A DNA stretch of 64,000 nucleotides from Escherichia coli (lineage in GTDB: Bacteria > Pseudomonadota > Gammaproteobacteria > Enterobacterales > Enterobacteriaceae), in assembly GCF_003334305.1 (NCBI RefSeq), contig NZ_QOWS01000023.1. The stretch is one strand, 5' to 3'. This document shows positions 4,271 to 49,203 of this stretch, piece after piece; position 1 is the stretch's first letter, and each line of letters opens with the position of its first letter. Made by a program: the position numbers and the translations under genes. Under the pieces are notes generated by a model that saw only the letters and a list, made by a program, of their open reading frames with translations, searched no databases and had not been told where the DNA came from.

Positions 4271-6460
4271 ATGCTTTACAAAGGCGACACCCTGTACCTT
4301 GACTGGCTGGAAGATGGCATTGCCGAACTGGTATTTGATGCCCCAGGTTCAGTTAATAAACTCGACACTGCGACCGTCGCCAGCCTCGGCGAGGCCATCG
4401 GCGTGCTGGAACAGCAATCAGATCTAAAAGGGCTGCTGCTGCGTTCGAACAAAGCAGCCTTTATCGTCGGTGCTGATATCACCGAATTTTTGTCCCTGTT
4501 CCTCGTTCCTGAAGAACAGTTAAGTCAGTGGCTGCACTTTGCCAATAGCGTGTTTAATCGCCTGGAAGATCTGCCGGTGCCGACCATTGCTGCCGTCAAC
4601 GGCTATGCGCTGGGCGGTGGCTGCGAATGCGTGCTGGCGACCGATTATCGTCTGGCGACGCCGGATCTGCGCATCGGTCTGCCGGAAACCAAACTGGGCA
4701 TCATGCCGGGCTTTGGCGGTTCTGTACGTATGCCACGTATGCTGGGCGCTGACAGTGCGCTGGAAATCATTGCCGCCGGTAAAGATGTCGGCGCGGATCA
4801 GGCGCTGAAAATCGGTCTGGTGGATGGCGTAGTCAAAGCAGAAAAACTGGTTGAAGGCGCAAAGGCGGTTTTACGCCAGGCCATTAACGGCGACCTCGAC
4901 TGGAAAGCAAAACGTCAGCCGAAGCTGGAACCACTAAAACTGAGCAAGATTGAAGCCACCATGAGCTTCACCATCGCTAAAGGGATGGTCGCACAAACAG
5001 CGGGGAAACATTATCCGGCCCCCATCACCGCAGTAAAAACCATTGAAGCTGCGGCCCGTTTTGGTCGTGAAGAAGCCTTAAACCTGGAAAACAAAAGTTT
5101 TGTCCCGCTGGCGCATACCAACGAAGCCCGCGCACTGGTCGGCATTTTCCTTAACGATCAATATGTAAAAGGCAAAGCGAAGAAACTCACCAAAGACGTT
5201 GAAACCCCGAAACAGGCCGCGGTGCTGGGTGCAGGCATTATGGGCGGCGGCATCGCTTACCAGTCTGCGTGGAAAGGCGTGCCGGTTGTCATGAAAGATA
5301 TCAACGACAAGTCGTTAACCCTCGGCATGACCGAAGCCGCGAAACTGCTGAACAAGCAGCTTGAGCGCGGCAAGATCGATGGTCTGAAACTGGCTGGCGT
5401 GATCTCCACAATCCACCCAACGCTCGACTACGCCGGGTTTGACCGCGTGGATGTTGTGGTAGAAGCGGTTGTCGAAAACCCAAAAGTGAAAAAAGCCGTA
5501 CTGGCAGAAACCGAGCAGAAAGTACGCCCGAATACCGTGCTGGCGTCTAACACTTCAACCATTCCTATCAGCGAACTGGCCAACGCGCTGGAACGTCCAG
5601 AAAACTTCTGCGGGATGCACTTCTTTAACCCGGTCCACCGAATGCCGTTGGTAGAAATAATTCGCGGCGAGAAAAGCTCCGACGAAACCATCGCGAAAGT
5701 CGTCGCCTGGGCGAGCAAGATGGGCAAAACGCCGATTGTGGTTAACGACTGCCCCGGCTTCTTCGTTAACCGCGTGCTGTTCCCGTATTTCGCCGGTTTC
5801 AGCCAGCTGCTGCGCGACGGCGCGGATTTCCGCAAGATCGACAAAGTGATGGAAAAACAGTTTGGCTGGCCTATGGGTCCGGCATATCTGCTGGATGTCG
5901 TGGGCATTGATACCGCGCATCACGCTCAGGCTGTCATGGCAGCAGGCTTCCCGCAGCGGATGCAGAAAGATTACCGCGATGCCATCGACGCGCTGTTTGA
6001 TGCCAACCGCTTTGGTCAGAAGAACGGCCTCGGTTTCTGGCGTTATAAAGAAGACAGCAAAGGTAAGCCGAAGAAAGAAGAAGACGCCGCCGTTGAAGAC
6101 CTGCTGGCAGAAGTGAGCCAGCCGAAGCGCGATTTCAGCGAAGAAGAGATTATCGCCCGCATGATGATCCCGATGGTCAACGAAGTGGTGCGCTGTCTGG
6201 AGGAAGGCATTATCGCCACTCCGGCGGAAGCGGATATGGCGCTGGTCTACGGCCTGGGCTTCCCTCCGTTCCACGGCGGCGCGTTCCGCTGGCTGGACAC
6301 CCTCGGTAGCGCAAAATACCTCGATATGGCACAGCAATATCAGCACCTCGGCCCGCTGTATGAAGTGCCGGAAGGTCTGCGTAATAAAGCGCGTCATAAC
6401 GAACCGTACTATCCTCCGGTTGAGCCAGCCCGTCCGGTTGGCGACCTGAAAACGGCTTAA
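4271..6460 (+). CDS. fadB: Fatty-acid oxidation complex alpha subunit (enoyl-CoA hydratase / 3-hydroxyacyl-CoA dehydrogenase), 729 aa
   Basis: ORF track 4145-6460; start placed at in-frame ATG 4271 ([16 protein letters not shown]...) downstream of the FadR operator. Confidence 0.95.
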
Positions 6461-8571: not shown

Positions 8572-10065
8572 TCAGGCGCTTTTACCGTTGTTAAAAATAG
8601 CCAGTTCATCCCAGATGGCGTCAATATGCGCGACAACATCTGGATCTTTTTTGATGGGACGTCCCCATTCACGCTGGGTTTCCCCCGGCCATTTATTCGT
8701 GGCATCCAGCCCCATTTTTGAACCCAGCCCGGAGACAGGCGAGGCAAAATCCAGATAATCAATAGGCGTATTTTCTACCAGAACAGTATCCCGCGCCGGG
8801 TCCATACGGGTGGTAATCGCCCAAATCACATCGTTCCAGTCGCGTGCGTTGACGTCATCATCGCAAACGATCACAAATTTAGTGTACATAAACTGGCGTA
8901 AGAACGACCAGACGCCCATCATGACGCGCTTCGCGTGTCCGGCGTACTGTTTTTTGATCGTCACTACCGCCAGACGATAAGAACAGCCTTCCGGCGGCAG
9001 GTAAAAATCGACAATTTCCGGGAACTGTTTTTGCAGAATCGGCACAAACACTTCGTTCAGTGCGACACCCAGCACCGCGGGTTCATCCGGCGGACGACCA
9101 GTATAGGTGGAGTGGTAAATCGCATCTTCACGCTGGGTAATATGCGTCACGGTAAATACCGGGAAACTATCGACTTCGTTATAGTAACCGGTGTGGTCGC
9201 CATACGGCCCTTCCGGCGCCGTTTCACCTTGTTCGATATACCCTTCCAGCACAATCTCCGCACTGGCGGGCACTTCAAGGTCATTGGAGATACACTTCAC
9301 CACTTCGGTCTTGGTACCGCGCAGCAATCCGGCAAACGCATACTCTGAAAGTGTATCCGGAACGGGGGTGACTGCACCGAGAATCGTGGCGGGATCGGCA
9401 CCCAGCGCCACAGAAACCGGGAAACGTTCGCCCGGATGCGCCGCACACCACTCCTGATAATCCAGCGCGCCGCCGCGATGCGACAGCCAGCGCATAATCA
9501 GTTTGTTTTTACCAATCAGCTGCTGGCGATAAATGCCCAGATTCTGCCGCTCTTTATGCGGGCCGCGCGTCACTGTCAGCCCCCAGGTAATCAGCGGCGC
9601 GGCATCTTCCGGCCAGCAGGTCATAATGGGAATGCGATTGAGATCGACGTCATCGCCAGAGACGATTTTTTGTTGGCAGGGCGCACCACGCAGCCGCTTT
9701 GTCGGCATGTTCAATACTTGCTTAAACTGCGGCAGTTTATCAAACAGGTCGCGGAAACCTTTTGGCGGCTCCGGCTCTTTCAGAAACGCCAATAATTTAC
9801 CAACTTCACGCAGCGCCGAAACATCTTCCTGCCCCATGCCCATCGCCACGCGCTTTGGCGTACCGAACAGGTTGCACAGCACCGGCATTGAGTAGCCTTT
9901 AGGGTTTTCGAACAACAGCGCAGGCCCACCGGCACGCAAAGTGCGGTCAGCAATTTCAGTGATTTCCAGATGCGGATCCACCGGGAGCGTGATACGTTTT
10001 AGCTCACCCTGCTGTTCAAGCAGCGTCAAGAAGTCGCGTAAATCGTTATATTTCATGGCGTCCAT
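8572..10065 (-). CDS. ubiD: 4-hydroxy-3-polyprenylbenzoate decarboxylase, 497 aa
   Basis: Full-length ORF recognised as UbiD. Confidence 0.95.
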
Positions 10066-41116: not shown

Positions 41117-41937
41117 AGATGAATAAATCCGTCGTAGACATGTACCGCCGGGCCAGTCATATATAACGGGTGACCCGGACCTTTCCAGGCGATATCAAGA
41201 CGACCGCCGGGGAGTTCCACGCGTACTTCTTCGGCCAGCAAACCTTGCTGAATCCCTACTGCGACCGCCGCACACGCGCCGCTGCCGCAGGCCTGGGTTT
41301 CTCCTGCCCCACGCTCATAAACGCGTAAACGAATATGCTCGCGCTTAACCACTTGCATAAAACCGATATTGGCGCGCTCCGGAAAACGCTCGTGGCTTTC
41401 CAGAACAGGACCAAGCGTTTCTACCGCCGCGGTATCGACATCATCGACCTGAATCACGCAATGCGGATTTCCCATCGACACCACGCCGCATAAGATTGTC
41501 TGCTCGGCGGCGCGCATAATATAGGTCTTTTCCGCTTTGTTAGCGCGAAACGGCACGGCGGAAGGTTCGAAGTTGGGTTCGCCCATATTTACGCGGACCA
41601 GATCATCATCGGTGACGGTCAGAACCATCCGCCCGTTGGCGGTGCTGACGCGGATATCACGCTTATTGGTCAGTCCTTTCAGACGCACAAAACGGGCAAA
41701 GCAGCGCGCACCGTTGCCGCACTGCGCCACTTCACTGCCATCAGCATTGAAAATGCGATAGTGAAAATCCAGTTCAGGATCATACGGCGGCTCAACCACC
41801 AGCAGTTGGTCAAACCCTACCCCCAGGTGCCGATCCGCCAGGCGACGAATCAGCTCCGGTGAAAAAAAGACATTCTGCGTTACCGCGTCGACGACCATAA
41901 AATCGTTGCCAAGGCCATGCATTTTCGAGAACTGCAT
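41113..41937 (-). CDS. dapF: Diaminopimelate epimerase, 274 aa
   Basis: ORF track 41113-41940; start at the second ATG ([13 protein letters not shown]...). Confidence 0.95.
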
Positions 41938-41973
41938 CATTTACTCCAATCACGCGGGTACAGAAACTGACTT

Positions 41974-42177
41974 TTAGTAATTCACCTGGGATGGACCATC
42001 GCCAGTGGCGCGATCGTTTTTATCCGGCACCGTGGATTGCGTTTGCGTCTCTACCGGTTTGGTCGGCGGCGGTGCCTTTTTATCTGCAGGCGGGAAATAG
42101 AGCGGACCTTTCAGACCGCAGCCCGTCAGGCTGAAGAGAGTAATTAATACAGTGAGTGCCTTAAACACGTTTTTCAT
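41974..42177 (-). CDS. lptM: Small lipoprotein LptM (YifL), 67 aa
   Basis: MKNVFKALTVLITLFSLTGCGLKGPLY... lipobox LTGC; 36 bp upstream of dapF. Confidence 0.88.
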   Translation of the reverse strand: MKNVFKALTVLITLFSLTGCGLKGPLYFPPADKKAPPPTKPVETQTQSTVPDKNDRATGDGPSQVNY

Positions 42178-42257
42178 TATGGATTGCCTGTAAAGTTCAT
42201 CGCTTTCTGCTTTCTATCATCGCAGGAGAAGGCGTAAAAGCAAGCGTTTAGCGACTC

Positions 42258-42427
42258 TTTATGAAGTCTGAAAAGTGAGGAAATGCTGCGAGTATAACGC
42301 TTACTCGTGGGGATTTATGTTTTGCTGGTAGTTTCGTGATCGGCACCTCGCGCCAGGATGGCTCTATGCACTATCGCAATGTAGTTTGTTTGTTGGCTTG
42401 TTCGTTGTTCTTATCGTCGGCATGGAG
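42258..42427 (+). repeat. Copy A of a ~170-bp duplicated 5' module (leader plus signal-peptide stub MHYRNVVCLLACSLFLSSAWSF*)
   Basis: ~88% identical to 43340-43510; in this copy the signal-peptide reading frame stops after 22 codons. Confidence 0.75.
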
Positions 42428-42526
42428 CTTTTAAAAGAGTGGCGCACCATGCAATTTTGTTGTCTGACCTTAGTCGCCAGTGACATACAACTTTGCCAAC
42501 CTGGTGATAAGAGGGAATAAAATCTG

Positions 42527-43081
42527 ATGGGGCTATTTACCCAACTGGAAAAATTTGACCAAAAGCTTACGCGCGGTTATGCCCGGTGGGGGCGCTGGGT
42601 ATGGCGGACGTTAATTGTCGTTCCGGTACTGGTCGTGTTGTGGAATATAGGACAGGCAGTATGGGGAGGACCAAGAGGTGGAGTGATTCTGGAAATCCAC
42701 AGTGAAATTGACCGTCCGATACTGGGATTCAGTGTTAACGGCGTGGCGGGCGCGAATGCTTTTGCAAATGGTGGCGGTTCAATCACCTGTTGTGGTGATG
42801 TCAGTGGGGATACGGCAGAGGTTATCTGGACATTAGATATGACTCACGAGCAATATCTTAAAGGGATGCGTCTGGAGAAACGTAACAAGACTTTGCCTCT
42901 CCCAAAAAGAGAATGGGGAGAAAATTATCTGCATGTGCATTTTATGCCTGGCGATAAAGTGCTGCTGGGGTGGAGTAAAGATTCTTTTTCTCCGTATGAA
43001 GATCTTCACAACGGGGGGTACAAGACCCGCGTTCGGCAGGATGTGAAAGATAAACTTTATGGTACAGGGAAAATGAATTGA
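42527..43081 (+). CDS. Hypothetical membrane-anchored protein (184 aa; N-in single TM, predicted periplasmic domain)
   Basis: ATG-initiated ORF with a good SD (AAGAGGG); TM segment WVWRTLIVVPVLVVLWNIGQAVW; lies in DNA I believe is absent from K-12. Confidence 0.6.
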   Translation: MGLFTQLEKFDQKLTRGYARWGRWVWRTLIVVPVLVVLWNIGQAVWGGPRGGVILEIHSEIDRPILGFSVNGVAGANAFANGGGSITCCGDVSGDTAEVIWTLDMTHEQYLKGMRLEKRNKTLPLPKREWGENYLHVHFMPGDKVLLGWSKDSFSPYEDLHNGGYKTRVRQDVKDKLYGTGKMN

Positions 43082-43339
43082 TAGATTTCTATAAAAATCA
43101 CGTTCGGCAGAAAGCGTAATAATGTGGCGAATGTTAGATACCGGTGGTGGGACCTGAATACAACACGCGAAAGACAATAAAGTAGGTAACGGTGGGCAGA
43201 GTCGCATGTTGAAACCCTTCCCGGCGTCAATCCGGCACATTTTAACGTGATCAGTCACACCATGGCGCAGTACCTCGTATTTATATCGTGAATGAAAACC
43301 TCAAGTTTACACCAGCAACTATCAGAAAATAGCGATGAC

Positions 43340-43510
43340 CTTTATGGATTCTGAAAAGTGACGATTTGCTGCGAAAGTTACGCTTACGTGCGGAGATTTA
43401 TGTTCTGCTGGTAGTTTCGTGATCGGCACCTCGCGCCAGGATGGCTTTATGCACTATCGCAATGTGGTTTGTTTGTTGGCTTGTTCATTGTTCTTATCGT
43501 CGGCATGGGG
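43340..43510 (+). repeat. Copy B of the duplicated 5' module, forming the leader and signal peptide of the first DKNYY-like gene
   Basis: Aligns with 42258-42427; here the frame continues into a 492-aa ORF. Confidence 0.75.
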
Positions 43511-44927
43511 ATGTCGGCTTGATGCGCCTGAACATAATATTTACCAGAAACAGGGAAAAGGCGTGGTGTACCTGCGCCCTTATAAAGAAACAAATCTTTC
43601 TCTTCCTGACGTGAATTACAAAAGTTTGCGCCGTTTACCCAATTTATTAATAGACCCGACAACACTAGACAAATGGGATAAAGTACCTCCTCTGACTGAT
43701 CTGACAACCGACTACCTCTATGAAGGCGCACAGGCCTGGTATCCTCATTACTCCTGGCATAGCGATGGTCGCTATATCCTCTACGCGGGTGAAGTTGTGC
43801 AAAACCCGCCAGACAAACCTCCCGTCGATGTCGCCTCGTTCAAGGCGTGGGGTGATTTTGCCGCAGATAAACACAGTCTCTATTTCGAAGGCAAGCGCAC
43901 CGATAACAATGGCGGGGGAAATCGCTTAGATATCAAAACACTGCATCAGGTGGAATTCCGGCCTCCCTGGGATCCTGACTTACTGGGGCTGATATTACGT
44001 GACGCTAATTTCTTGTATATCAATGGGCATCGCCTCGCAGATCCCGATAGTTTCCGTGTGCTGGCACAAAAGTCATGGGATCAGCGAGGAAAGTTTTCTA
44101 CCGCGTTTAATCCCTGTGTGGCTATGCCATTTGGCCCCTGGGATACCCTGGCTCGTACACGGACCAAAATCCTGATCAACGGCGAACAGCTTGATGCCGA
44201 CCCGGACACCTTTTCCGTCGTGCGCTGGATGCCCGGCTCACTCTTGACCTGGCGTGATAAAAACGGGCTGCAGCGTAAAGTCCTCGACAAGGAAAATCTG
44301 GAGTGGGATGAAGATTTAACAAAGCACTGTCTGGATTTTTCTCTGCTGGAAAAGAAAGTGTTCTGGCGTAAAGGACCTGCTTGTAAACAGGAAGAATTAC
44401 CCGGACTCGATCCGGAGCAGTTTCAACCCATCAGTGATGCTGTCGCCCAGTATCAGGACTCGCTTTATACCATCATCGAAACAGAGTCTGGTGACCGCAA
44501 GCTGGAAATCGTGAAACTTGATGATCCCAATCTTATTATCAACAAACGTTTCAACGCCGGGAAACGCCACGGCTATTTACTTACGCGTGCCGAAGGGTGG
44601 CCATACCATTCCGGTTTACATGTGTTTGAATCTGACGGACCGCTGATCTTACTGGATAACCGTTCTCCGGATGAACGCGAAGCCCATCTTAATGACCATC
44701 CCTTTTTGCGCAGATGGTATGCCCGCGATAACCGCTACATTTACAGCTTTGATGGCGCGCAGCTCTGGCGATACCGCACCGCTGATCCGAAACAAGTTCG
44801 CTTAATCTGGAAGGAACAACATTCGGGATATGGCTATGGCGTAAATTACAAAACGGGATATCTGGACGGAAAAATTACTGATGACGGCGAATTTATTCCT
44901 GCCCCGCGCAATGAGGCGACAAAATGA
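43449..44927 (+). CDS. Exported repeat protein, DKNYY-like (492 aa from ATG 43449), N-terminal signal peptide or lipoprotein signal
   Basis: ORF track 43419-44927; MHYRNVVCLLACSLFLSSAWGC signal sequence; recurring Y-x-x-G...[AP]-D-P-x-[ST]-F repeat units (e.g. FLYINGHRLADPDSF, ILINGEQLDADPDTF). Confidence 0.75.
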   Translation: MHYRNVVCLLACSLFLSSAWGCRLDAPEHNIYQKQGKGVVYLRPYKETNLSLPDVNYKSLRRLPNLLIDPTTLDKWDKVPPLTDLTTDYLYEGAQAWYPHYSWHSDGRYILYAGEVVQNPPDKPPVDVASFKAWGDFAADKHSLYFEGKRTDNNGGGNRLDIKTLHQVEFRPPWDPDLLGLILRDANFLYINGHRLADPDSFRVLAQKSWDQRGKFSTAFNPCVAMPFGPWDTLARTRTKILINGEQLDADPDTFSVVRWMPGSLLTWRDKNGLQRKVLDKENLEWDEDLTKHCLDFSLLEKKVFWRKGPACKQEELPGLDPEQFQPISDAVAQYQDSLYTIIETESGDRKLEIVKLDDPNLIINKRFNAGKRHGYLLTRAEGWPYHSGLHVFESDGPLILLDNRSPDEREAHLNDHPFLRRWYARDNRYIYSFDGAQLWRYRTADPKQVRLIWKEQHSGYGYGVNYKTGYLDGKITDDGEFIPAPRNEATK

Positions 44928-46249
44928 AGGGTCAAATAATCACAGTTGCACTCATCCTGTTGGGACACACATTTCTGACGCCTGCTGTACAGGCCATAGG
45001 GTTCGACTATTACAATGATCACGGTGTTATGTCTTACGGTAAAGGTTATTGGGGGGATAAGAAAATCATTGCCCAATTTCCGAAGATGAACAGAGCCGAT
45101 TTGCGCCTTGTGACAAATATATCCGGGGAGCGGGAGTTGGTGGAAGGCTATATACCCACCGATGAAATAAGCATAAAAAATGAGGAATACCACTGGGTGA
45201 CAGACGGCCGCGTTATTCTCTGGCGTGGCAAAATCGTTAGCAATCCACCGGGAACACCCACTGTCGATATTGCCAGCTTTCAGGCTATGGGCCGCTTCGC
45301 GGTCGATAAATATAGCCTCTATTTTGACGGACAGCGCACCGAAAGTAATAGCGGCGCGTCACGTGTTGATCTGGCGACACTAAAAGCTATCGAAGGTAAC
45401 TCTACCACGCTGGTGGATAGTAAAAATCTCTATTTGTCCGGTCGACGTCAGGGGAGCAGCAGTAATGTTACTGTATTAGAAAAAAGATGGTGGGGTATTA
45501 ATCCACGTCTTATGAGTGTAAACAGAAATTTGTATTCCAATGATCTGCTTATCCGCAGTGGGCAGAATATTTATTTAAATGGCGTTCACCTTACGGCGAA
45601 TGCAGACTCATTTGAGATAATTCGCTGGATACCTCATTCACTGCTGGTTTTTCGCGACAATAAGGGTATGCATCGTTATCCCTTTGGGCAATTGTCTGGC
45701 AAAGCGATACCCGTAGATGATGACGTCTCTTTTGAAGTAGGGGAAAGTCGCGTTCGCTGGCGTAAACAGCTCACGTCCGACCGTCAGTGGAGCAAGTGGA
45801 TAGACCTACCAGATATTGAACCTGAACAATTCCATCTGATTACTGGCAATATTGCGCAATATAAAGATCGGCTGTATGTAACAAAATTATCGACATTTGG
45901 TGAAGACCAGCTTGAGATAATCCCGCTGGATACGCCAGACCTGGTCATTGATCGCTCATTTAATAGCGGCAAACAGCATGCTTATTTTATCCGCCAATTA
46001 CGGTCAAAGAGCGTGCAAATTATTCCAGTTAACGGTCCGCTAACTAAAAACGATCGCTTCGCTTATGACGATCGCAATGTTTATACATGGACCGATACAG
46101 AGGTAAGGATTACGCCCTCCCCCTGCCCGGCGAAAACACACGTCAGAGAAGAGAATGTGCGTGAACTTCACAACAGAGACATTATTATTCCGTTGACGGA
46201 TGACTCATGCCGGAACGCAGCAACAGACGGGCAAACTTTGAAGCCCTGA
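44924..46249 (+). CDS. Exported repeat protein, DKNYY-like paralogue (441 aa), cleavable signal peptide
   Basis: Signal peptide MKGQIITVALILLGHTFLTPAVQA; clearly homologous to the upstream ORF (PPGTPTVDIASFQAMGRFAVDKYSLYFDGQRTESN vs PPDKPPVDVASFKAWGDFAADKHSLYFEGKRTDNN); ATGA overlap; SD GAGG. Confidence 0.75.
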   Translation: MKGQIITVALILLGHTFLTPAVQAIGFDYYNDHGVMSYGKGYWGDKKIIAQFPKMNRADLRLVTNISGERELVEGYIPTDEISIKNEEYHWVTDGRVILWRGKIVSNPPGTPTVDIASFQAMGRFAVDKYSLYFDGQRTESNSGASRVDLATLKAIEGNSTTLVDSKNLYLSGRRQGSSSNVTVLEKRWWGINPRLMSVNRNLYSNDLLIRSGQNIYLNGVHLTANADSFEIIRWIPHSLLVFRDNKGMHRYPFGQLSGKAIPVDDDVSFEVGESRVRWRKQLTSDRQWSKWIDLPDIEPEQFHLITGNIAQYKDRLYVTKLSTFGEDQLEIIPLDTPDLVIDRSFNSGKQHAYFIRQLRSKSVQIIPVNGPLTKNDRFAYDDRNVYTWTDTEVRITPSPCPAKTHVREENVRELHNRDIIIPLTDDSCRNAATDGQTLKP

Positions 46250-46296
46250 CCCCATACCGCTATACTGCCGCCATCACTTAAAGACAGGATACAACA

Positions 46297-46617
46297 ATGA
46301 ACGACAGTGAATTTCATCGCCTGGCTGATCAACTCTGGCTGACCATTGAAGAACGCCTGGACGACTGGGATGGCGACAGCGATATCGACTGCGAAATCAA
46401 CGGCGGCGTACTGACCATTACCTTTGAAAACGGCAGCAAAATCATTATTAACCGCCAGGAGCCGCTGCACCAGGTGTGGCTGGCAACCAAACAGGGCGGC
46501 TACCATTTTGACCTAAAAGGCGATGAGTGGATTTGCGATCGCAGCGGCGAAACCTTCTGGGATTTGCTGGAACAGGCGGCGACGCAGCAGGCGGGTGAAA
46601 CAGTCAGTTTCCGCTAA
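46297..46617 (+). CDS. cyaY: Frataxin homologue CyaY, 106 aa
   Basis: Full-length [30 protein letters not shown]... Confidence 0.95.
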
Positions 46618-46656
46618 GATTGCATGCCGGATAAGCCTCGCTTTCCGGCACGTTCA

Positions 46657-49203
46657 TCACGAAAAATACTGCTGTAATAGCGGCGTATCGTGATCCTGAT
46701 TGGCAGGCGGCATGTTACCGATAGATTTTGTGCGGAACGGAATCACCTGTTCACGACCATCAACCTTCACAATCTGATAGAACTGCGGCAGGTTGAAGTT
46801 GATGAAGCTTGAGCCGTAGGTAAAACGGTCATGCGATGACGAGTAGAAGCGACTGACGTCACGTACCAGCTCCTCTTTGCTGCCTTCGCAGTGGTGATAC
46901 ACCTCAACCCGGTTGCTTTCGTCGAGAATGTAGATATTAAAGCCATTCTCGTCTTGCGTTTCTTCGAAAAAGAACTGGATGATCCCTTCGCTGGCAAAGC
47001 CGTCCACCACCGCCGGTAATTTGACGTGATTGGTTTCAACCTGCACTGACAGGCCGTGCAGTTTGTTATGCGAAATCGCGCCATAAAACTCGATGGCGTT
47101 TTCCAGTTTCTGTACCGATACATTCAGGCGTTCGAAGAACAACCCCCAGGTTTGACCAGAAACGCGCAGCGCCTTGAAACGCCCGGTTTCCTGGCGGGTG
47201 CTGGAAAGGCGCAGTTCAATACACTCAGAAACCAGTTGCTGCACGCGAGTACGGATTAAGCCGCGCAGATGCTGGCTATAACAGAAGACTTCCACGCTAT
47301 CTGGCGGTGCGGCGTCCTGATGCATTTTGCCGAGAATAGTTTTCAGGGCTTCGATCATCGATTGCTCGCCGTTGAAGTGCAGCGTACGCACTTCGTTCCA
47401 CGAGTTGCGGTACAGCAGGTCAACGCTACCTACCAGGCAATTTTGATTCTCGCCAAAGCTGAAGACATCCAGCTTACGGAAATCAAAATGCACCACCTGA
47501 TTGCGGAACGCCGCTGTCGGGTCATATTCCAGGTTAACGATAATCGCCAGATGGCGGATCTCACACGGGCTGTAGAGCGCCTTCGGTGTCGGTGCAGGTA
47601 AGCGCAGCGGGAAATGGTGCGACACGTCGGCGACCATCTCCTGCAACTTAGGCAAATCGACAATGCCGTTACCTTTAATATACAAACGGGTGCGCGAGGT
47701 CAGCAGGCCGTTAAACCATGCCCACGCCACCAGTTTGTTCAGGTAACGGTTATATTCCAGCGGCTGATGGCTGATGATCGACTCAATATTTGGCGCGCGG
47801 TTATACAGATACCAACCTGAACGGTTAGCACGGCCCGGCGGCACATAAATAAAGGTCAGATTCGGTTCCGAGAGATCGGGTGAAATCTGCGGGTTTACCA
47901 GCGTCACTTTACCTGGTAATGCTTCAAACGCGGCATACAGCTTACGCGTCAGCACGCCGATATCCTGCGGACTGGCGGAGACGCTAAGGTTATTGCGACG
48001 CGCAAAGCGGATCAGATTACGGTAGCTCTGCATCATCGCGTCGAGCAACTCGTTGTGCGCCTCACGCACCTGATCAATCTTCCAGTTAGCGCGGTTATCG
48101 AGCATTGCCAGACGAGCTTCGTCCCAACCCCACTCGCTCACTAACTGGCTCAACACTGCGCGACGCCAGCCTACGCAGGCGCGTTCACGGCTGAGCTTTT
48201 CGCACACTTTTAAATAGAAGCAGCGACGTACTAAATCCAGACGGGTAAAATCTTCAATCGCCGTCAGGTATTCAGTAACACGCTCCAGCATCATGCAGTA
48301 TGGATCGAGACCAAACGATACAATCTCGCCGTCGTGCAAACGCTGTTTGATATCTTTCGCCAGCAGACGTGGGTTCGGGTATTCCCAGGAATAGGCTTCC
48401 AGCAGCAGTGTTTTCAGTACCGCTTTGTATGGGGAATCGATACTCTTGTAGAGCTGCCAGAGGCTGGCACCAAAGTACTCTTCAGCAGAAAGCGAGCTTA
48501 AGCCACCGAGATCCAGCCATTCATTTGGCGTCAGCACGCCCTGCGCGTAAAGCGTCATCACATAGTCGTCGTAATGCTCTTCTTCGTCGCACGGCACCAT
48601 ATTCCACAGAATACGCTTACCGGCGAGACGCACGGCGGTACGATAAAATTCGTCAAGCAGCAGTATATGCTGGGTGGAGCCACAATCTTCGCCCCCCAGG
48701 CTGCCGCTTTCATTATGACGGAAGCGGTTTTCATCAATCAGGAAGAAGCTGACTTCCACACCCAGCGAGGCGGCCCAGCTTTCCAGCAGACTACATTTAC
48801 GTTGTAGTAACTGGCGCTCTTCGCTATCGAGCCAGGATTGATGACAGACCCAGATATCCAGGTCAGAGGAACAACTTTGCCCTACGGACGAGGTGCTGCC
48901 CATGGTGTATACACCAGTAATTGGAAGCTCACCTTTCGGTGGGTCCTGTACTGACATTCCACGATACAGTTCAAGCTCGTTCAGGTAGTGGCGTTGAGTT
49001 TCATCAGGCGTGTAAAGGCAAATGCCTTTGGGAACGTTACCATCAAGGTAACCCGGCATTAGCGGATGGTGATAGTGCAACAATGTCGGCAGTAGACTGT
49101 AGACCTGTTGGAATGCAGGCCCCATAGCAGCAAGCGCGCGATCCACACGCAATTGATTTATGGCATCCAGTCTCTGTTTCAGAGTCTCAATATAGAGGTA
49201 CAA
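46657..49203 (-). CDS. cyaA: Adenylate cyclase, 848 aa, TTG start
   Basis: Full-length ORF; first codon is TTG, as known for cyaA. Confidence 0.95.

Follow-up and report, generated by a model that had tools for sequence, protein, structure and literature searches.

DUF3304 is a domain of immunity proteins that neutralize Tle1 phospholipase effectors, with Tli1a of P. aeruginosa and proteins of B. thailandensis and K. pneumoniae among its known carriers (PMC13133936). The DUF3304 immunities to Tle1 of these three species are either validated or candidates (PMC13133936; PMC5649205). The P. aeruginosa locus has the order vgrG4a, tla1 (DUF4123), tli1b, tli1a, and tle1. Tli1a (PA3291) is an outer-membrane lipoprotein that provides immunity to Tle1 (PA3290) (PMC13133936). 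[quoted passage not shown] The K. pneumoniae immunity protein Tli1(KP) also contains DUF3304 (PMC13133936), and complementation with tli1 shielded prey from Tle1(KP) in competition assays (PMC5649205). The Tle1 of EAEC binds VgrG directly and does so without an adaptor (bioRxiv 10.1101/2024.03.05.583533). Immunity genes are also found apart from their toxins. The orphan immunities of V. cholerae and the AID arrays of Bacteroides stand for this concept and for that of acquired interbacterial defence (PMC12469244).

Here we describe a DUF3304 gene that lies between lptM and cyaY on the chromosome of E. coli. Its family, the concept of orphan immunity, and the RefSeq label DUF3304 are already known, and the analysis adds no new mechanism. 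It is a known type of gene in a new place.

The Gene and Its Setting

The window, by which we mean the whole 64-kb stretch of DNA that was analyzed, is E. coli chromosome that reads uvrD, yigB, xerC, yigA, dapF, lptM (yifL), an island, cyaY, cyaA, and hemC. The island between lptM and cyaY is about 4 kb long. Its first ORF, at 42527-43081 on the plus strand (as are all features located below unless stated otherwise), has an ATG start and encodes a protein of 184 aa; the ORF together with its homology marks it as a putative orphan immunity gene of the tli1 type. The identical CDS is listed in RefSeq as WP_000522551.1, a "DUF3304 domain-containing protein". The ORF does not arise by chance, because 422 homologues of the protein were found and dN/dS among its alleles is below 1. 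Two minus-strand ORFs that overlap the gene (42577-42786 and 42833-43258) were dismissed, as conservation and dN/dS both track the plus-strand frame. The 3′ end of the gene (43019-43048) has an imperfect 30-nt direct repeat just beyond the stop codon (43090-43119, 70% identity), which may be left from a tandem copy that followed the gene or may match by chance.

Family and Predicted Fold

An earlier note on this DNA, made from the sequence alone, held that nothing in the protein would let a family be assigned. HMM searches and structure prediction do assign one, namely DUF3304 of the Tli1 type. Pfam DUF3304 (PF11745) matches residues 63-145 over model positions 6-95 of 97, with an E-value of 2.6e-4 and 21.8 bits. 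A Pfam scan that listed all matches to E 10 gave no other domain in the protein, DUF2931 included. The sole NCBIfam match is Tli1a_fam (NF053804), a hypothetical equivalog model, at 21.4 bits against a curated cutoff of 110, and relatives of the protein score 24-30 bits against it. By these profile scores the protein is homologous to Tli1a_fam at the level of the domain and lies outside that narrow family. The DUF3304 assignment is solid even though the single-sequence scores are weak, because homologues match the model transitively: 19 of 20 close homologues do so, as do 57 of the 62 in a wider set that extends to 20-30% identity, with a best E-value of 5e-31. PADLOC defence models matched neither the 184-aa protein nor the effector, the adaptor, or the DKNYY proteins discussed below.

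AF2 run on the 62-sequence alignment gave a model with a pLDDT of 90.6 and a pTM of 0.76, which supersedes a mediocre earlier model built from 20 close sequences (pLDDT 69). It consists of a long N-terminal helix (residues 2-46) and a beta-sandwich (residues 53-150). The DUF3304 domain is assigned to codons 48-150 (42668-42976) from the AF2 strands and from Foldseek matches, and is predicted to be periplasmic. When the AF2 model was searched against AFDB50 with Foldseek, nearly all of the top 50 matches were DUF3304 proteins, from Escherichia to Pseudomonas, Burkholderia, Vibrio, Aeromonas, and Xanthomonas. The beta-sandwich fold is common to the model and these family members. We found no solved structure of any DUF3304 member. 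One AFDB50 entry, X5FDM4, is a 761-aa E. coli "DNA 3′-5′ helicase" that is 67% identical to the 184-aa protein across 165 alignment columns; its gene model was probably mis-called or fused.

Membrane Anchor and Cysteines

The protein has a single hydrophobic helix at codons 27-47 (42605-42667) that would serve as a membrane anchor. Kyte-Doolittle hydropathy in a 19-residue window peaks at 1.91 over residues 29-47, and no other segment exceeds the membrane threshold of 1.6. The N-terminal flank (residues 1-26) has five K/R and two D/E, and the C-terminal flank one K/R and three D/E. The anchor is kept in 20 enterobacterial homologues. Hydropathy, the positive-inside rule, and the AF2 model together predict an N-in/C-out protein with one N-terminal anchor and a periplasmic domain, in keeping with the topology put forward earlier. 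A cleavable signal peptide with a long n-region may be the alternative to a transmembrane anchor. A lipobox cysteine is absent from the protein, in which the first cysteine is residue 88. By a simple hydropathy-plus-lipobox rule, 51 members of the 62-sequence set have transmembrane-type anchors and 6 have a lipobox, a rule that undercounts the latter since a few further lipobox members were scored as transmembrane.

The CCGD motif pointed out in the earlier note is present at residues 88-91. C88 and C89 (42788-42793) are the only cysteines in the protein and are followed by G and D. This adjacent pair is near-invariant across DUF3304 relatives (invariant in one family alignment, at least 90% conserved in another), and there is no further cysteine for either to pair with. 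In the predicted periplasmic domain they could possibly form a vicinal disulfide or stay as free thiols.

Origin in a T6SS Effector Locus

[quoted passage not shown] Window positions 42449-43088 are 96.4% identical to positions 8923-9562 of the E. coli IZSBS22 locus L003 (640 bp, blastn), and this matching tract opens 78 nt 5′ of the ATG. It begins with the last 35 nt of a DUF4123 adaptor gene, including the TGA stop (42449-42483), which was recognized from the match to L003 and from a four-way alignment with three T6SS loci. The adaptor-to-immunity spacer follows (42484-42526). It carries a ribosome-binding site, GAGGG, at 42511-42515, 11 nt 5′ of the ATG. When the window is aligned with L003, L016, and L002, the adaptor end is near-invariant, as is the spacer. 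Just upstream is a 28-nt scrap from the interior of the DUF4123 (Tla1-like adaptor) gene (42427-42454), which matches L003 8711-8738 by blastn (93%, E 4e-6); L003 8136-8957 is annotated as a DUF4123 protein. The E. coli DUF4123 adaptor weakly matches the NCBIfam model of Tla1, the P. aeruginosa Tle1 chaperone (E 1e-8).

Other E. coli genomes carry close copies of the gene within T6SS loci. In L003 and in L016 (strain PSJ-42), the order is tssH, vgrG, DUF4123, DUF3304, a DUF3304 pseudogene, DUF2235, and vgrG. L002, an ST131-type locus, has vgrG, DUF4123, DUF3304, and a gene labeled "phospholipase effector Tle1 domain". The 184-aa protein differs from the effector-linked copy of L003 only by Q6R, R23H, T180E, K182N, and M183N, and residues 24-179 are identical. 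In L016, a second DUF4123 adaptor fragment (5071-5337, 65% over 89 aa) separates the DUF3304 pseudogene from the effector gene, and L003 has one at the same spot, so the source T6SS locus has itself been rearranged.

By tblastn, the 64-kb window contains no Tle1, VgrG, or DUF4123 gene other than the adaptor scraps, and since Tle1, VgrG, and an intact DUF4123 gene are all missing from it, we call the 184-aa gene an orphan. The junctions show no inverted repeats or mobile-element ends, and the annotation has no flanking mobile-element genes; the junctions therefore look, from their sequence, like illegitimate recombination. As an insertion of this kind that carries a scrap of an adaptor gene, the locus is a clean and datable case of the capture of an immunity gene.

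The DKNYY-Like Genes of the Island

Downstream of the orphan gene are two genes for secreted proteins or lipoproteins (43419-46249, made up of 43419-44927 and 44924-46249), which resemble Pfam DKNYY weakly. They are paralogues with 35% identity, overlap by 4 nt at start and stop, and have N-terminal signal sequences. Their matches to DKNYY (PF13644) are marginal, with E 9.4 for the 502-aa protein and E 0.03 and 0.075 for the 441-aa protein. RefSeq calls some alleles of these neighbours "DKNYY family protein".

Remnants of a further DKNYY-like gene surround the orphan gene. A 169-nt direct repeat, 90% identical between its copies, lies at 42257-42425 and 43340-43508. The first copy comprises the native lptM-side leader and the 5′ stub of a destroyed DKNYY-like gene, and the second covers the 5′ end of the intact 502-aa gene together with its leader. 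The stub ORF extends from 42336 (GTG) or 42366 (ATG) to a stop codon at 42432-42434 and is 22-32 codons long, with the translation MHYRNVVCLLACSLFLSSAWSF. By tblastn, 42336-42425 corresponds to residues 1-30 of the 502-aa protein at 97%. The left copy is the native one, because window positions 42100-42425 are 97-98% identical to, and collinear with, K-12 J53, elppa5, and JCM5491; the second copy and the native leader of other strains share only 84-90% identity. Between the orphan gene and the second copy, tblastn detected a decayed internal fragment of the destroyed (third) DKNYY-like gene with in-frame stops (43124-43273). Its best-preserved part, ETLPGVNPAHFNVISHTMAQY, aligns with residues 325-345 of the 502-aa protein (52%, E 4e-4), and a weaker extension reaches back to 43124. 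The 640-bp T6SS piece is thus enclosed by the remains of this degraded gene.

The lptM-cyaY site is found in three states. In K-12 and most strains, all that is left is a short pseudogene from the 5′ end of a DKNYY-like gene (L004 and L005). In some others, both DKNYY-like genes are intact and a DUF3304 gene is absent (L006). The window represents the third state, with the stub, the T6SS fragment, the decayed DKNYY piece, the second leader and 5′ end, and the two intact genes. Both the 184-aa ORF and the "signal-peptide stub" that the earlier note saw upstream of it are thus real, the stub matching the beginning of the 502-aa gene at 97% identity. The gene is not, as had been proposed, the first member of one inserted cluster. 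The island has two origins: the DKNYY-like genes belong at the locus, where K-12 retains a stub, and the 184-aa gene is a separate arrival. Sequence comparison indicates that it reached this site from a T6SS locus, later than the DKNYY-like genes.

A consensus scan of 42100-43500 gave no sigma-70-like promoter, and Rfam gave nothing over 41900-46700. Inside the DKNYY leader, a terminator-like hairpin at 42286-42310 precedes a T-rich run, and repeat copy 2 has a diverged version of it. The hairpin at 42286-42310 was the single one returned by a terminator scan of 42100-43500, a number that is not above shuffled expectation. A 4-kb contig binned as "Collinsella sp." (L017, JAIJJM010000270.1) carries the E. 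coli island, with a DUF3304 gene at 95% and DKNYY genes at 97-99%, and is probably a binning contaminant.

Gene Neighbourhood in Other Enterobacterales

Gene contexts were taken from three exact-protein look-ups and from 26 loci found in a scan of species-representative genomes, all annotated by local tblastn. In 19 loci outside E. coli with enough downstream sequence, one to five tandem homologues of the 184-aa gene directly precede a Tle1 homologue; vgrG and a DUF4123 gene usually come before them. The Tle1-linked genera are Citrobacter, Serratia, Pantoea, Kosakonia, Enterobacter, Dryocola, Buttiauxella, Hafnia, Erwinia, Morganella, Mangrovibacter, and Rahnella. Only the E. coli lptM-cyaY copies have DKNYY neighbours and kilobases of downstream sequence that contain no effector.

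These contexts bear on the suggestion that the 184-aa protein serves the two downstream DKNYY-like proteins as an immunity, chaperone, or assembly factor. The three genes do share a strand and are closely spaced within the island, and 850 genomes have the entire island at a coverage of at least 80%. The DKNYY pair nevertheless also exists without the 184-aa gene, as in L006, which indicates that its products are not partners of the 184-aa protein. The pair is present in 1395 genomes against 1074 with the orphan junction, so by subtraction at least 321 have the pair and lack the gene. Outside the E. coli locus, no homologue has a DKNYY neighbour and relatives instead adjoin a Tle1-like effector. 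The gene, moreover, came with a piece of a T6SS adaptor gene, and a 340-bp gap with pseudogene debris separates it from the next gene. A role as partner of the DKNYY-like proteins is extremely unlikely on this evidence. Of the roles proposed earlier, immunity stands as the right class, and the pairing with the secreted proteins downstream does not.

Frequency and Maintenance in E. coli

The population survey covered 5426 complete genomes of E. coli, of which 1074 have the orphan junction and 618 the adaptor-immunity junction that marks the effector-linked copy. Any homologue of the 184-aa gene is found in 1674 genomes, at 1747 places. From these three genome counts it follows that at most a few dozen genomes have both copies, and that no effector-linked copy accompanies the orphan in at least about 93% of its carriers. 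A total of 618 genomes contain Tle1-like DNA, a number equal to the adaptor-junction count. An effector allele that matches the immunity gene of the window (at least 99%) is found in 43 genomes, and the remaining Tle1-like DNA is 65-73% identical. The orphan is about 25 times commoner than its cognate effector allele. Among the sampled carriers are Shiga-toxin-producing (STEC) strains, O111 and O103 included, and many isolates from animals.

Each of five orphan alleles, taken from different strains, is intact and encodes 184 aa. Compared in pairs, they give dN/dS values of 0.03-0.36 and dS values that reach 0.27. In this five-allele sample, the ratios argue for purifying selection on the orphan gene. 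The gene could also be an inert relic, a hitch-hiking T6SS fragment in a decaying region that is unexpressed or useless and kept by descent. Its surroundings are indeed pseudogene debris, made up of the stub, scraps of the adaptor gene, and what remains of the DKNYY-like gene; the promoter scan returned no promoter-like site, and the matching effector allele is rare. The intact state of every sampled allele and the spread of the orphan junction speak against decay, as do the dN/dS values, given that the dS values allow ample time for it. The gene has kept its own ribosome-binding site. The neighbouring DKNYY genes, in contrast, are frameshifted or deleted in many strains. We consider it unlikely that the gene is a relic.

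Nearly all differences between orphan alleles lie inside gene nt 310-401, a patch of 92 nt (42836-42927, codons 104-134) that was delimited by this clustering. It comes in two protein types, DMTHEQYLKG..NKT..ENY and STTRTQYNAG..NMT..EDF. The patch is mosaic and looks, from the pattern of differences, like gene conversion among paralogues. It also differs between the immunities of L003 and L016, although their effector, WP_001402476.1, is identical. The idea that the dimorphism at codons 104-113 is a specificity switch is weakened by this pair, which differs there and faces the same effector.

The Effector Clade Paired With This Immunity

The DUF2235 "Tle1-like" effectors beside this clade of immunities lack the G-x-S-x-G motif (L003:10418-12361, L002:9525-11390, and those of L008, L010, and L023). 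Aligned to the solved Tle1-domain protein 9j3f_A (PDB), the nucleophile Ser is replaced by Asp223 (GYDTG vs. GFSRG), and the His of HSDVGGG by Ser. Both changes are conserved in five enterobacterial effector homologues. These non-canonical residues fit published mutagenesis of the K. pneumoniae protein, in which the toxicity of Tle1(KP) survives S248A and H375A and is abolished by D297A, the only change to do so. Since the clade lacks the canonical Ser and His, "phospholipase" may be the wrong word for the toxin that this immunity would neutralize.

A non-canonical effector clade would also suit a DUF3304 protein that has been re-purposed, either for sensing or buffering envelope or lipid damage or as a broad decoy for lipase-type toxins. 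So would the excess of orphan genes over the cognate effector allele and the recombination of the mosaic patch among paralogues. The periplasmic domain is nevertheless identical to that of the effector-linked copy, no sequence change indicates a new function, and the 184-aa protein has no other domain. We regard such re-purposing as very unlikely.

Proposed Function

The 184-aa protein is most probably an orphan T6SS immunity protein of the DUF3304/Tli1 family that is anchored in the inner membrane and faces the periplasm, with protection proposed by analogy to its relatives. Several points count against it as an orphan immunity. A consensus promoter was not found, the single-sequence scores are weak, and the matching effector allele is confined to 43 genomes. 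The relatives that have been localized are outer-membrane lipoproteins, and the canonical Ser and His are missing from the effector clade. The protein is homologous to DUF3304 proteins all the same, and its gene, conserved after the loss of the effector, comes from an effector locus.

As an orphan immunity, the protein could work as follows. The helix at residues 28-47 would insert in the inner membrane with the N-terminus in the cytoplasm, and this insertion would put the beta-sandwich DUF3304 domain in the periplasm. There the domain would bind the catalytic domain of an incoming Tle1-like (DUF2235) toxin and stop membrane damage. We infer this binding and blocking because Tli1(KP) and Tli1a are analogous. 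The toxin would come from the T6SS of a rival E. coli or of another enterobacterium, and the carrier would outlive the attack without owning the weapon. Transcription would most likely start in the adjacent upstream leader, which belonged to the destroyed DKNYY gene.

If the gene is protective, about 20% of complete E. coli genomes would resist one class of T6SS toxin without having the weapon. This would affect which strains win when cells in the gut fight by contact, as in encounters with Klebsiella or Enterobacter that deploy Tle1-like effectors. More tentatively, and with less than even confidence, we suggest that the gene is a one-gene shield, carried by a fifth of sequenced E. coli, against the non-canonical DUF2235 toxins of gut Enterobacterales, and that codons 104-134 tune its range. 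If true, E. coli would have a one-gene form of "acquired interbacterial defence" that is 25 times commoner than the matching weapon. The users of the toxin would be gut Enterobacterales such as Klebsiella, Enterobacter, and Citrobacter, with effectors of the Ser-to-Asp, His-to-Ser clade.

Comparison With Known Systems

The source locus resembles that of K. pneumoniae, where arrays of tli1(KP) lie upstream of tle1(KP) in HS11286 (KPHS_23060-23090) and in CH1157 (PMC5649205; PMC9550808). Compared by gene order and domain, both have vgrG, a DUF4123 adaptor, at least one tli1, and a DUF2235 effector. Unlike the K. pneumoniae genes, the copy in the window has no effector, adaptor gene, or vgrG alongside. 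With P. aeruginosa Tli1a, the 184-aa protein shares the DUF3304 beta-sandwich, and it is predicted to face the periplasm, where Tli1a is located. Tli1a is a lipoprotein, whereas the 184-aa protein has a predicted N-terminal transmembrane helix, lacks a lipobox, and scores well below the Tli1a_fam cutoff (21 bits vs. 110).

The Tli1 of EAEC (EC042_4535) is from the same species, bears the same name, and has the role, immunity to a Tle1 phospholipase, that is proposed for the 184-aa protein. It is, however, an unrelated DUF2931 lipoprotein that is encoded downstream of Tle1 (bioRxiv 10.1101/2024.03.05.583533). EAEC Tli1 resides in the outer membrane, whereas in the clade of the 184-aa protein the predicted anchor is a transmembrane helix, or else a signal peptide that is not cleaved. 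A further parallel is with the orphan immunities and AID systems. There, as here, the immunity gene persists where its toxin is absent and is found more widely than the toxin. In contrast to the AID arrays of Bacteroides, the E. coli gene stands singly, with no adjacent recombinase or mobile element, at a fixed chromosomal site between lptM and cyaY.
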